Positions 47,840-54,517 of a stretch of DNA of 64,000 nt are shown here, piece after piece. Position 1 is the stretch's first letter, and each line of letters opens with the position of its first letter. Both the position numbers and the translations under genes were made by a program. The DNA comes from Eledone cirrhosa (taxonomy: Eukaryota). The notes below the pieces were generated by a model. The model saw only the letters and a list, made by a program, of their open reading frames with translations, did no database searches and was not told where the DNA came from. Location of the stretch: positions 386,756,001 through 386,820,000 of the forward strand of contig OZ024741.1 in assembly GCA_964016885.1 (NCBI GenBank), read 5' to 3'.

Positions 47840-47950
47840 ATGGCTGTACATGCTTGTGTGTAGATATGGTAGTGCATATGTGTGTGCGGACACACACACA
47901 CTCACACACGCGCACATACACTCACACACACATATGTATATATATATAAA

Positions 47951-50900
47951 GATATGTTTCTTTATTAGCCACAGGGGCACAAAAGAAGGGGGCAAATACA
48001 AAGGAGTAAGTTTACATACAATAAAAACGTGTAAAATACTATCTCAAATGCAATTTAAAAGTTAATCGATTTTCCCCAATAGGGGGAGACATTACATATG
48101 GGTAACACATACCTCCGAAAAAATGTGCAACCCTCATCTCCAGGAGTACGAAGAGTTTGTACGCCTTTCCTCTCTTCCTCTTTTTCCTCAACCTACAGGC
48201 TGATATAGAGAGAAGGCACATTCACTCGGGCTATTCTCGCCACTTTTATCCACCTTTCATAAAATTGCTGGGGTACAGCACCTCTCTCTCCATCCTGGGG
48301 TACAGCACCTCTCTCTCCATCCTGATTCTTCTTCCAAAGTGGTATTTGAAAAAAAGAATCAGTTGATGGCCGAAGAGAAAGGTGTCTGACCTCAGCCCTT
48401 TTAACCTTGTCCACCATACAACCTCTTTCGCCATAGCTATCAAACAAAGGAAAACCGCCTCTCCTTCGTTTTTGAAGGAGTGTGGCGGTTTGATCATGCC
48501 AATGGACTCGGTGGTCAACCGGATTGGTCCCACCCGCGACAATAGTCGTTCTACATAGCCCCAGGCGGAAGGTCCTACCGAACAGACTGGCCAGTTCGTC
48601 TTCCTCTACGCCTAGAGTTTCTCCGAGAGCGTCGTCGCACTTGCTGCGGACCAACCCTCTATAGAATGACGAAGTGGAGTCTCCACTGATTGCCGGGTCC
48701 GCCTGCCAGAGGGCTGTGAGCGCCTGAGCACATTCGATGTGCCAGTCGCCCATTTTCCTCGGTATTTGCTTGACCCAGGACTGCAGCTCGGTCAGCGAGA
48801 CGAGTCGTTGGAAGGCTCGCCTCATGAACGGGGCCCACACCGGTTGTCCGGTGAGGAATACGTAGAGATGCCGCAGCCTGAGCGCATGTTTGTACATCGT
48901 CAGCCACGGCATCCCCAGCCCTCCGTTGGAAGGGTGTTGGCAGCAGATGGATCTTCTCACCAAAGGAGCCCGCTTCTTCCAAAGGAATTGGAAGAGCGCG
49001 CGCTCCATTTTGGTGAGCGTTTTGGCTGGACAAGGCACGACGGTCAAGCGATAGTAGATGACGGACGCTATAAAAGTGTTCGCCACCTCCGCTCGATCTT
49101 TCAAAGATAGTTTGCACTCGGCCCACTTCTGGGTGAGTGCAAACACCTTGGCCGTCACCTCGTTCCAGTTCTTCTCCACCTGGATGTCCGGACTAAACCA
49201 GACCCCGAGCAGCTTCACCGGTCCTTCCGTCCAGCGTCCGACGACGCCATCGGAAGGCATCGGTTTGCCTCTCCACGATCCGATTTGTAAACCGATGGAC
49301 TTGTCCCGGTTCAGCTTCGCTCCTGTGAACCTTTCGTATTCCTTCAGTAAGGTGCCGACTTCCTCGATTTGCGAGGTACTCGACACCATTACTGTCACGT
49401 CGTCGGCGTAGGTCTACGCCGCTTTCCGCAGTCCCGGTTCCAGAGGGATGCCCTGCAATAGCTCCAGCTTCCGCAGTAGTGGCTCGAGAGTCAGTACGTA
49501 CAGAAGGGAGGAGAGAGGGCATCCCTGTCGGATGGATCGCGTGATATGGAACGGTTCCGAGAGGTAGCCGTTCACCTTGACCCTTGAGCAGATGTTGCTG
49601 TTGTGCATTGCAGCAATCCAGCCCCTGAACACGGGTCCGAATCCTGCCGCCTCGAGCACCGCATCCAGGTAACGATGGTTAACCCTATCGAAAGCCTTAG
49701 ACTGATCCAAGTTGATCAGGGCCCCACCGAAGCCGGATTTACACCATACCCTCTCTACGATGTATCGCATGAGGTGGAGGTTGTCCTGTATGGACCTGGT
49801 CGGGATTGCGCATGTCTGCGCTTCTCCCACCAGGTTTTAGACGACAAGCGCCAGCCTCTTTGCCAACACCTTGGCCAAAATCTGTAACTGTGTTTAGCAG
49901 AGTTATGGGCCGGAAGTTGCCTATGTCATCCCCCTTATTCTCGTCCTTCCTGACTAGCGTGACTACGCCCCAGGTCACAGAACTAGGAATTCTCCCGTTC
50001 TGCTGCCAGTTGCAGTAGACCGCTTCCAGGAGACCGGAGAACAAGTCCGACATTGTTACGTAAAATTCGTAGGGTAGACCGTCGAGACTTGGAGATTTGC
50101 GTTTGCCGCATTGGCTCAGCGCGTCCCCTATTTCAGTGGCTGAAATCGGCTTTTCGCAGAACTTCGCCTCGCTGTCCGAGAATCGCGGTAGGCCGTCGAG
50201 GTATGGACCGAAATCCTTAGCCCTTCCCGGCGCGCCGCCCTGCCTGAACAACTGAGCAAAGTGCCGCTGAAAGGCCACGCACATCTGCTTCGACTCACGT
50301 ATCACGCGTCCGTCTTGGTCCTTCAAAGACCGAATCGTGGACTTGTTGCCACTTTTCGCCTCCGTCAACCGGGCCCAGCTAACAGCTTTGGCTCCCTCGT
50401 TACCCAGAGCACGTATTTTGCTTCTGACAACGCAGCCCTCGTGCTTTGCGTCGAAGAACTGGTCCAAGGCCGTTCTTGTTGCTAACATTCTGGCTACGTT
50501 GCCACTTCTAATTGCCTCTTCTACTTTATCTACCAGTTCCTTCTCGGTCCTATTTCTACCTAACGCTAATTCTTTACTAAAAACTAACGAGTCTAATCTA
50601 ACTGCCCTCTTGAGAGAGTACCACCATCTGTATATATATATAAAGATAGATAGATAAATAGATAGATTTCTTTATTTGCCACAGGGGCGTACAAAAGTGG
50701 GACATTACAAGACCTAACGGCGGGGGTTTTACATAAAATCTTTAACAATAATAATGGATAACAATAAAATATATACAAAATAAAACAATCGAAATCCCCA
50801 ATAGGGGGGAACGTTACTGCAGGGTTGTTTTACACCCCGTGGATAGAACAACCCTCAACACCAGGAACACGTTTTGTAGGTGTTCCCGTCTTCCCTCTGT

Positions 50901-51619
50901 TTGCCTTCCTCAACCTACAGGTTTATATACAGAGAAAGCCCATTCACTTGAGCCATTTTCGCCACATTCATCCACCTTTCAGCGAATTTACTGGGGTGTA
51001 GCACCTCTCTCTCCACTCTCACCTTCTGAAGTGATACTTAAAGAAGGGGATAAGTTGTTGTCCGGAGAGAAAGGTGTTTGCCCTCAAAGGTTTTAACCTC
51101 GTCCACCATATTACCTCTTTCGCCATAGCCACCAGACAGAGGAAAATCTCCTCTCCTTCATTCTTAAATGAAGGCGGCGGGTTGATCCTCACGAAGGACT
51201 CGGCCGACAACTGGATGCGTCCTACACGTGACAGTAGCTGTTAACATAATTCCAGAGGTCGGTCACCCCTGGGCACTGAACAATTGCGTGCATAACGGTT
51301 TCGATGTCCTGCTCGCATCTTGGACAGATCCTTTTGGCAGGATCTCTGCCAGGGCGTCCGTGCCTGTAAATTTTGTCTCGAACTGGTAGAGATCCTCGGT
51401 TGCACTGCCAGGCCAGAGACCTCTGGAAGTTATCCAGAGGCCCTGGACGGAAAGTCCTCCCGAACAGACTGGTCAGTTCGTCCTCCTCGATGCCTAGAGT
51501 TTCCCCGAGAACGTCGTCGCACTTATCCTCCACTAATCCCCTATATAATATCAAAGTGGAGTCTCCGCTGATTGCCGTTTCCGTTTGATGAGGGCTGTGA
51601 GCGCCTGTAGGCACTCGAG

Positions 51620-51697
<78 letters not shown>

Positions 51698-52129: not shown

Positions 52130-52209
<80 letters not shown>

Positions 52210-54390
52210 TGTAGTGAGAAGGCTGTGGGTTCGAATCACGTTGGGGTTACCATTTGTGGTCTTGCTGCTGGGTTCCCCAAGTCCTTGTATTTTTAATAAT
52301 TCTATAGCTAGAAGGATGTGTATATGGGGTTGGTTTATGATCAGCTATCTGTGTTTCTTCTGTATACAAGCTGTGGTCACAGGTCAAGTTGTATGTACGT
52401 TTATCATCCTGTTTCTTGACAGGACAATCGTGGGAAACTCCCAATAATGGGTGGTCCCAGAGGAGAGAACTCTTAGATTCGTTTTCGAATCTTCGCCGGT
52501 AAGACATAGCAGTATTACGTTACAGATAGATAGATAAGTGGGTGGCTGGCTGGCTGGAAGGATGAATGGATAGGTAGATAGATAGATAGGTGGGTAGATG
52601 GATTGATGGATAGAAAGATAGATAGATAGATAGATTTCTTTATTTGCCACAAGGGTGCACAAGAAAAGGGACAAAACAAAGACACATGCCGGGGATTTTA
52701 CATACAGTCGTGTAAAAATATTGAAACAAACAAATTCAACAATCGAAATCCCCAATAGGGCGAAGGCGCCACAAATGGGTTGTTTAATACCCTGTCGATA
52801 GAACAACCCTCAACTTCAGGAGTATGTTGTGCAAGTGCTCCCTTCTTCCTTTTGCTCTCTTCTTCAACCTACAGGTTTATATACAGAGAAGACCCAATCA
52901 CTCGGGCCATTTTTGCCACATTCACTCACCTTTCAGTAAATTTACTGGGGTGCAGTGCCTCTCTCTCCACTCTGATTCTCCTTCTAAAGTGGTACCTAAA
53001 GAAGAAAATGAGTTGATAGATAAATTTCTTTATTAGCCACAAGGGCACAAAAGAAGGGGACAAATACAAATAGGGAGTTTACATACAGGTATATGAAAAT
53101 AAAACTATTAATACAATAACAAATAACAATTGAAATCCCCAATAGGGGGGGGGGGTTATACAGGGGTTGTACACACCCCGAAAAAATGTACAACCCTCAT
53201 CTCCAGGAGCACCAAGAGTGAGTACTCCCTTCTTCTCTTCCTCTTTTTCTTCAACTTACAGACTTATATAGAGAGAAGGCCCAACCACTCGGGCCATCTT
53301 TGCCACATTCACCCACCTTTTATAAAATTTGCTGGGGTACAGCACCTCTCTCCATCCTGATTCTTCTTCCAAAATGATATTTGAAAAAACGAATCAGTTG
53401 CTCGCCGGAGAGAAAGGTGTCTGACCCCAGCCCTTTTAACCTCGTCCACCATATAACCTCTTTCACCATAGCCATAACACATAGGAAAACCGCCTATCCC
53501 TCGTTGTTTTCGAAGGAGGGTGGCGGTTTGATCATACAGTGGACTCGGTGGTCAACTGGATTGGTCCCACCCGCAACAATAGTCGTTCTTCATAGCCCCA
53601 CAGGTCGGTAACGCCCGGGCAGTGTACAAATGCGTGTGCGACGGTTTCCTCATCGCGCACGCATCTCGGACAGATCTTTTTCGAAGGGTCCCTACCCGGG
53701 CGCCCGTGTCTGTAGAGCTTGTCTCGAACTGGTAGAGACCCTCGGTAGCACTGCCAGGCCAGGGAGTTTTGGAAGTTGTCCATTGGTCCCGGGCGGAAGG
53801 TCATACCGAACAGACTGGCCAGTTCGTCCTCCTCTACGCCTAGAGTTTCTCCGAGCGTGTCGTCGCACTTGCTGCGGACCAACCCTCTATAGAATGTCGA
53901 ATTGGAGTCTCCACTGATTGCCGGGTCCGTTTACCAGAGGACTGTGAGCGCCTGAGCACATTCGATATGCCAGTCGCCCATTTTCCTCGGTCTTTGCTTG
54001 ACCCAGATCTGCAGTTCGGTCAGCGAGACGAGTCGTGGGAAGGCTCGCCTCACGAACGGGGACCAGACCGGTTGTCTGGTGAGGAATACGTAGAGATGCC
54101 GCAGCCTGAGCTCGTGTTTGCGCATCGTCAGCCACGGCATTCCCAGCCTCCGTTTGAAGGGTGTTGGCAGAATGAGTTGATAGATAGATAGATAGATATG
54201 TTTCTTTATTAGCCACAGGGGCACAAAAGAAGGGGACAAATACAAAGGGGTAAGTTTACATACAATAAAAACGTGTAAAATACTATCTCAAATGCAATTT
54301 AAAAATTAATCGATTTTCCCCAATAGGGGGAGACATTACATATGGGTAACACATACCCCCGAAAAAATGTGCAACCCTCATCTCCAGGAG
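47951..54390 (-). mobile_element. Array of six 5'-truncated Tx1 copies (about 47951-50628, 50665-51619, 51696-52130, 52633-53015, 53023-54170, 54194-54390) separated by (GATA)n
   Basis: Each ends GTGGC(A/T)AATAAA(A)GAAA..TATC on the minus strand, and the ORF2 pieces are homologous to 12560-15143. Unrelated sequence lies at 52210-52620. Confidence 0.92.
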
Positions 54391-54517
54391 TAGATAGATA
54401 GATAGATCAGGTGAATAAATATAATTCCTTTAGTCAATGTTCAGATTGAAATATATAAATACATCTATATATGAATAATGGAACTTGAGCAAGTTTTTTC
54501 GCTATTTTTTTCAAATA

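Follow-up and report, generated by a model that had tools for sequence, protein, structure and literature searches.

Among the long interspersed nuclear elements (LINEs) of the Tx1 group, Kibi is found on (TC)n, Koshi on (TTC)n and crocodilian groups on (TTCC)n or (TTTC)n, and Kibi and Koshi of teleost fish, as well as the crocodilian Tx1 group 2, are LINEs with an apurinic/apyrimidinic-like endonuclease (APE) that are specific to microsatellites (PMC4494074). Here we analyze a stretch of 64,000 nucleotides from contig OZ024741.1 (assembly GCA_964016885.1, positions 386,756,001 to 386,820,000 of the forward strand), henceforth called the window, from a host that is likely an octopod; it contains seven copies of a Tx1-like LINE, presumably of the same APE type, within (TATC)n/(GATA)n, and a sister lineage whose repeat is (ATT)n. 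The likeness to Kibi and Koshi lies in the mode of insertion; the target is neither (TC)n nor (TTC)n, the copies are not filed as members of either family, and no protein named Kibi or Koshi is among the database matches returned. Other relatives take DNA transposons, not microsatellites, as their targets: Tx1L, the element of Xenopus laevis that encodes the 149 kDa protein YTX2, and, in crocodilians, Tx1-Mar and SINEU-3. The last resembles our locus in its sequential tandem insertions, which sandwich a target-site duplication (TSD), as described in PMC4494074.

Microsatellite-specific elements without long terminal repeats (LTRs) exist also outside the Tx1 group. Waldo and Mino belong to the R1 clade, and Dong to the R4 clade with its restriction-like endonuclease; all are clades other than Tx1. 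In the accessible portion of a 2013 review, these elements appear with the targets ACAY, AC and TAA, respectively, and the non-LTR targets given there (ACAY, AC, TC, TTC and TAA) do not include GATA, while the basis of microsatellite targeting is said to be not well understood (PMC3812793). In LINEs of the RTE clade with microsatellite-like 3' ends, the repeat is a tail; according to PMC6007223 there is a correlation between this 3' repeat and where the nick falls, and the repeat may serve in priming. In contrast, the copies presented here have the repeat on both sides, and those with readable TSDs add at most one or two units. The repeat annotation of O. vulgaris reports 13 recently active L1-Tx1 families, and neither "target" nor "GATA" occurs in its main text as far as this is accessible (PMC13282606); "Tx1" is not mentioned in PMC9115989. 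A literature search whose scope excluded most subscription papers, Repbase, Dfam and the figure and supplements of PMC4494074 returned no report of a GATA-targeting Tx1 element, and such a target is probably unreported so far. The class of mechanism is already known; what is probably new is the GATA target, with the sister lineage on ATT beside it.

Insertions into GATA tracts

Searching the window with the 3'-end motif, we found seven Tx1-like copies (c1 to c7), all 5'-truncated and all on the minus strand (7/7), in the single orientation that an earlier note on this DNA had claimed. Their order, with the intervening tracts, is as follows:

47935-47954, no strand: TSD of c1 on the element's 3' side, where the sole GATA unit of that side lies
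47955-50628, minus: c1, 5'-truncated Tx1-like copy with the linker between endonuclease (EN) and reverse transcriptase (RT), the RT, the C-terminal domain and the 3' untranslated region (3'UTR)
50629-50648, no strand: TSD of c1 on the element's 5' side, microhomology being possible for its first 3 nt
50649-50666, plus: GATA units including one AATA variant, interval between c1 and c2
50667-51619, minus: c2, 5'-truncated, with zf-RVT domain (counting the junction dinucleotide, the start is 50665)
51621-51696, plus: (GATA)19, interval between c2 and c3
51697-52129, minus: c3, 5'-truncated, with its own 3'UTR
52130-52209, plus: (GATA)20, adjoining c3 on its 5' side
52210-52524, no strand: unrelated repeat of 315 bp, bounded by TG...CA and with GATA to either side, a probable solo LTR
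52525-52634, plus: degenerate GATA/GGAT tract with perfect units at its end
52635-53015, minus: c4, 5'-truncated, older than c5 (counting the junction dinucleotide, the start is 52633)
53007-53022, no strand: TSD of c5, 3'-side copy, containing the 5' end of c4
53023-54170, minus: c5, 5'-truncated, inserted later than c4
54171-54186, no strand: TSD of c5, 5'-side copy, followed by three further GATA units
54199-54392, minus: c6, 3'UTR only, 98% identical to c1 over 194 columns
54393-54407, plus: GATA units next to c6 on its 5' side, forming the right edge of the pad
56853-57354, minus: c7, 5'-truncated, in a separate tract, TSD of at most 11 bp
57355-57490, plus: 5' side of c7, GATA units giving way to a degenerate GATA-like tract, a pre-existing target

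Every copy ends with AATAAA plus 6 nt (7 nt in c3) and then passes directly into TATC without any poly(A), and the phase of this junction is identical in all seven. On the opposite side, the 5' junctions of c3, c6 and c7 (52129/30, 54390-92 and 57353-54; 3/7) abut GATA with no family member beyond, a situation which the same test encounters at 45 of the 56,977 positions outside the arrays (7.9e-4). Since GATA on the 5' side without a family member beyond it marks the tract as target, the proposal of the earlier note that the repeat is not only a tail is borne out; moreover, c7 has a degenerate tract on its 5' side, where a tail is impossible.

The duplications that had been reported around c1 and c5 are both exact, and each is limited to its two places in the window on either strand: TGTATATATATATAAAGATA occurs at 47935-47954 and 50629-50648, AATGAGTTGATAGATA at 53007-53022 and 54171-54186. 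The former, a TA-rich 20-mer, is no low-complexity accident: its initial 14 nt are found at 50 places in the window, its initial 15 nt at just two. GATA on the 3' side amounts to one unit in c1 and two in c5, all of it within the maximal TSD, so that at most one or two units derived from RNA were added. The duplication of c5 contains the 9-mer AATGAGTTG (three occurrences), which is the 5' end of c4, aligning to open reading frame (ORF) 2 of the sister copies, and which does not match the expected continuation of c5; hence c5 was inserted after c4 and is the younger of the two, as the earlier note had read from the same 16 bp. Nested TSDs of this kind give relative ages of subfamilies.

The stagger of c1 lies between 13 and 20 bp, 20 bp being an upper bound, because the first 3 nt of the duplication match the expected continuation of the element (judged from a2, a copy of the sister lineage presented below) and its terminal GATA is possibly derived from RNA; that of c5 lies between 8 and 16 bp, 16 bp again being an upper bound. 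A stagger of 16-17 bp is compatible with c1 and c5 and not with c7. The general stagger of 16-20 bp proposed previously does not hold, as it draws on two readable copies with values that are upper bounds. Nor does the supposed preference for the left edge of a tract survive: a TSD is readable only if the nick falls within one TSD length of the edge, and, as readability itself selects for the edge, the remark is circular.

The copies belong to diverse subfamilies. Their 3' parts are 62-98% identical, with c1, c6 and c7 reaching 94-98% at their 3' end; the several distinct 3'UTRs noted before resolve into five types that are interleaved along the array (c1/c6/c7, c2, c3, c4 and c5). Truncation points differ in all seven copies, with microhomology of 0-3 nt, and c1 carries frameshifts, stops and a 27-bp internal tandem duplication.

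The suggestion of a single landing pad is not confirmed. The tracts around c1 to c6 may represent one ancestral tract divided by the unrelated 315-bp insert, which is likely a solo LTR within the same GATA tract, as suggested by its TG...CA ends, the GATA on both sides and its high depth in the public run X4. (The summed depth of this repeat is high in X4 and none in X1; it carries ATTAAA on the minus strand.) The tract of c7, however, is separate and lies 2.4 kb from the pad, and the perfect tract of 13 GATA units at 30364-30415 is without Tx1 copy. The pad contains 62 of the 105 GATA/TATC units present in the window in runs of at least two, a count partly inflated by the insertions themselves and by later slippage, so that the presence of six of the seven copies there needs no cause beyond target abundance; a special attraction to this one pad was considered and rejected on these grounds. 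GATA/TATC tracts without a Tx1 copy extend over 30330-30415, 31813-31872 and 60718-60990.

In mechanistic terms, the cluster is a real and clean example of microsatellite-targeted, target-primed reverse transcription (TPRT): 3' ends are intact in 7/7 copies, truncations are distinct and TSDs are readable in 2/7, and the target-primed insertion into pre-existing GATA on one strand that the earlier note had envisaged is supported, as is the independence of the insertions. The specificity for the microsatellite extends to 7/7 copies in the window and, for the 3' side, to three of four public runs. That the copies entered pre-existing GATA in a targeted way, whether through the endonuclease or through RNA pairing, we regard as highly probable. 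Our preferred explanation, to which we assign a probability of about 0.65, is more specific: an endonuclease nicking the GATA strand at fixed phase, followed by TPRT, would have produced seven independent, 5'-truncated insertions in pre-existing (GATA)n. On the purine-rich strand, the first nick would fall at GATA^, and the 3'-OH so exposed would prime cDNA synthesis at the end of the 3'UTR, perhaps aided by a few nucleotides of UAUC pairing. A second nick at variable distance, from about 11 bp or less up to 20 bp away, would yield the TSD and may fall in non-repeat DNA. Each insertion would leave GATA on both sides, so that the tract would still be a target and copies would stack head to tail; in a genome rich in microsatellites, LINEs would in this manner split GATA tracts and increase their number. 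The APE endonuclease would be the determinant of the target, and its divergence from that of the sister lineage would explain GATA versus ATT. The putative nicking step is modeled on the family, in which the Tx1L endonuclease alone is sequence-specific (PMC1950540).

Several observations weigh against this explanation. A TSD is readable in only c1 and c5; the flanks of c7 share at most 11 bp and those of c2 at most 10 bp, a limit for c2 that would not hold if an AATA variant had been gained or lost after the insertion, and the flanks of c3, c4 and c6 are pure repeat in which a TSD is unreadable. The endonuclease domain of the GATA lineage is absent from the window (c1 begins in the linker), and none of the six closest database proteins falls inside the GATA clade. 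Public reads add points on both sides. Eleven runs were listed, six of which contain part of the stretch, and four were compared with 52212-54515, a comparison that skipped repeat positions and is consequently silent on TSDs; findings on loose ends rest on 24 of 2180 listed, those on joints on 15 of 283. In this material, a (GATA)n consensus precedes the 3' end of c5 type in X9 (organism D; 1020 raw reads, agreement 0.75), in X2 (organism B; 3 contigs, agreement 0.97) and in X1 (organism A; 136 contigs), the agreement in X1 being weak (0.55); X4 has no (GATA)n row among the six listed. These data probe the 3' side alone, which a tail would equally give, and neither an empty allele among the 15 joints nor a piece spanning the array among those listed was found. 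One joint of X1 connects a further truncation point with a 3' end by way of GATA, which is a head-to-tail array at another locus.

Relatives and the sister lineage on ATT

The earlier note had overlooked a second Tx1 lineage in the window, as well as the absence of poly(A) and of any added tail in the GATA copies. This sister lineage spans 6617-15443 and 25573-26678, both on the plus strand, with the following copies:

6617-9359, plus: a1, internally deleted, in head-to-tail arrangement with a2, from which (ATT)n separates it (putative 5' limit)
9379-15404, plus: a2, near full length, flanked by (ATT)n at either end (putative 5' limit)
25573-26619, plus: a3, with (ATC)n after it, and a4, with (ATT)n after it, both truncated

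The ORF1 of a2 has a CCHC knuckle (C-x2-C-x4-H-x4-C, read from the translation), and its ORF2, with one frameshift near 13020-13044, combines APE endonuclease (PF03372), RT (PF00078) and zf-RVT (PF13966); the endonuclease region also matches structures of the LINE-1 endonuclease. The 3' end is the same as in the GATA copies, but the repeat next to it is (ATT)n in a1, a2 and a4, and in a3 it is (ATC)n; ATT stands on both sides of a1 and a2, which have no readable TSD. Close relatives within one genome thus occupy different repeats, and such sister lineages form a natural pair for distinguishing the endonuclease from the RNA 3' end as determinant of the target. The left flank of a1 is the (ATT)n tail of a SINE-like repeat of 150-220 bp (SINE, short interspersed nuclear element), which has many copies in the window, some in tandem and some with an (ATT)n end, at 6398-6559, 24969-25194, 28555-28769, 29043-29535, 30998-31205, 38630-39033, 41273-41685 and 46560-46784.

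The Tx1-type identity of the GATA copies is supported by protein comparisons, the assignment being one of similarity alone and the tree lacking a reference set of L1, CR1 or RTE. The RT half of a2 is 33% identical to the Xenopus Tx1 149 kDa protein (E 3.3e-67), c1 is 32% identical to the Xenopus Tx1L protein over 498 columns, and the named top matches of a2 include the "Transposon TX1 149 kDa protein" of Xenopus and Stylophora; among named animal proteins, one of Argonauta hians comes closest (69%), which makes an octopod the likely host. GATA copies retain RT and zf-RVT only, as all are truncated downstream of the endonuclease. Their coding frames were derived from tblastn, by which they are 52-71% identical to a2 over the main stretches; Pfam gives no domain in four of five stop-to-stop frames from the cluster, some of which are not the coding frame. 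Amino acid identity to a2 is about 71% for c1, and the GATA clade as a whole is 61-71% identical to the sister lineage in RT and C-terminus. In a protein tree of 31 rows projected on a2 (five GATA copies, a2, a3 and 24 of the listed database proteins; c4 and a1 omitted as too short, c6 as noncoding), the five GATA copies form one clade with ultrafast bootstrap (UFBoot) of 100, nested in a lineage with a2, a3 and P0121-P0126 (UFBoot 100), within which most branches have low values (27-76). At the DNA level, a tree of the window's 11 copies also joins the seven GATA copies at UFBoot 100.

Two database proteins that are 71% identical to this LINE, P0125 and P0244, are deposited as Herbaspirillum sp. 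on 1.8-kb contigs; they likely represent host DNA contaminating a bacterial bin. Searches of other collections were negative: the junction pattern had one match in metagenome contigs (L001), a chance match in unrelated DNA; the sister RT had no match in viral contigs; the pattern from alignment A1 had 35 matches in genome contigs, none of them confirmed; and the 3'-end pattern had none in genome contigs and 14 in viral contigs, none element-like by blastn. Folding the 3' ends with RNAalifold gave two 3-bp stems (-4.25 kcal/mol; two of six pairs with two-sided change), too weak for a claim of structure.

Other explanations for the association with GATA

The main rival explanation places the memory of the target in the RNA, and it is favored by the occurrence of near-identical 3' ends before three different repeats in relatives that are 44-71% identical in protein. 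The endonuclease would be loosely specific, and only nicks in GATA would pair with the (UAUC)n of a read-through transcript; cleaved inside the downstream repeat, the transcript would pass on as target the repeat in which the master copy lies. The usual distance from AAUAAA to the cleavage site is 10-30 nt, and, since the element ends 6 nt past AATAAA, its transcripts would be cleaved within the downstream repeat and carry (UAUC)n. The lack of poly(A) and the same AATAAA plus 6 nt end in GATA, ATT and ATC copies fit this explanation, which also accounts for an easy change of target, and PMC6007223 considers pairing at the 3' end in the case of RTE, I factor, R1Bm and R2Ol. Yet pairing in multiple registers should often add units, whereas the one unit of c1 and the two of c5 all lie inside the TSD; GATA is retained as target across subfamilies that are 62-83% identical in their 3' part; and the endonuclease of Tx1L is specific by itself (PMC1950540). 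Memory in the RNA consequently appears unlikely as the explanation, while endonuclease nicking and RNA pairing may act jointly. A wider scenario, which we advance as a speculation and hold to be slightly more doubtful still, is that an octopod radiation of Tx1 partitioned the microsatellites of the host among sister lineages (GATA, ATT and perhaps ATC), each target being remembered by RNA. If this were true, a lineage would shift its target by landing in a new repeat, with its endonuclease unchanged, and an APE LINE would follow a self-perpetuating, RNA-instructed rule of targeting.

A tail encoded by the element, as in RTE or CR1, would make GATA the product of the insertions instead of their target. 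GATA at the 3' end in 7/7 copies and in public reads would be expected from such a tail, and four of the seven 5' junctions do adjoin the 3' end of another copy. Nevertheless, the behavior of tail-type LINEs (RTE, CR1 and L2) is not found here: no 3' GATA extends beyond the maximal TSD in c1 and c5, where it is entirely duplicated target, and c3, c6 and c7 have GATA on their 5' side without a family member beyond (7.9e-4 each by chance), with a degenerate tract in the case of c7. We consider a tail as the sole origin highly improbable and reject it.

Still less credible is an unspecific insertion whose copies persist in fragile microsatellites or become trapped there. The window is indeed rich in microsatellites (145 rows in TRF, Tandem Repeats Finder), and passive accumulation has been proposed for Drosophila Waldo-A/B (PMC3812793); however, TA, CA and ACAT tracts are far commoner in the window and hold none of the seven copies, in which strand and phase are fixed (7/7).

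Tandem duplication of a segment, or an artefact of assembly, could account for the 94-98% identity of c1, c6 and c7 at the 3' end and for the array-spanning read not being seen. This is the least probable explanation, and segmental duplication is rejected, because just three internal matches of at least 90% over at least 60 bp (212-384 bp) are present in 47900-57500 and end at different truncation points, the five 3'UTR types are interleaved and the TSDs bracket single copies.

Other repeats in the window

A third group of LINEs lies at 33754-35986 on the plus strand, and at 32965-33559, 44787-45378, 45881-46448 and approximately 47130-47301. It has an RT and a C-terminal RHD...PD...VEISCP motif, which we take to be that of the Dong/R4 restriction-like endonuclease; four of its five copies have (ACAT)n on both sides, and three copies of 600 bp have a common 5' start. 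This group is possibly an ACAT-targeting family of Dong elements. RT fragments at 20311-21108 and 62917-63363, both on the plus strand, are outside the Tx1 lineage described here or weakly similar to it. The remaining repeats comprise a near-perfect inverted repeat of 279 bp (92%) at 56144-56422, which resembles miniature inverted-repeat transposable elements (MITEs) or foldback elements, a diverged 43-bp unit in 5.4 copies at 24735-24966 and a 40-bp unit repeated 13 times with 99% matches at 43666-44191.

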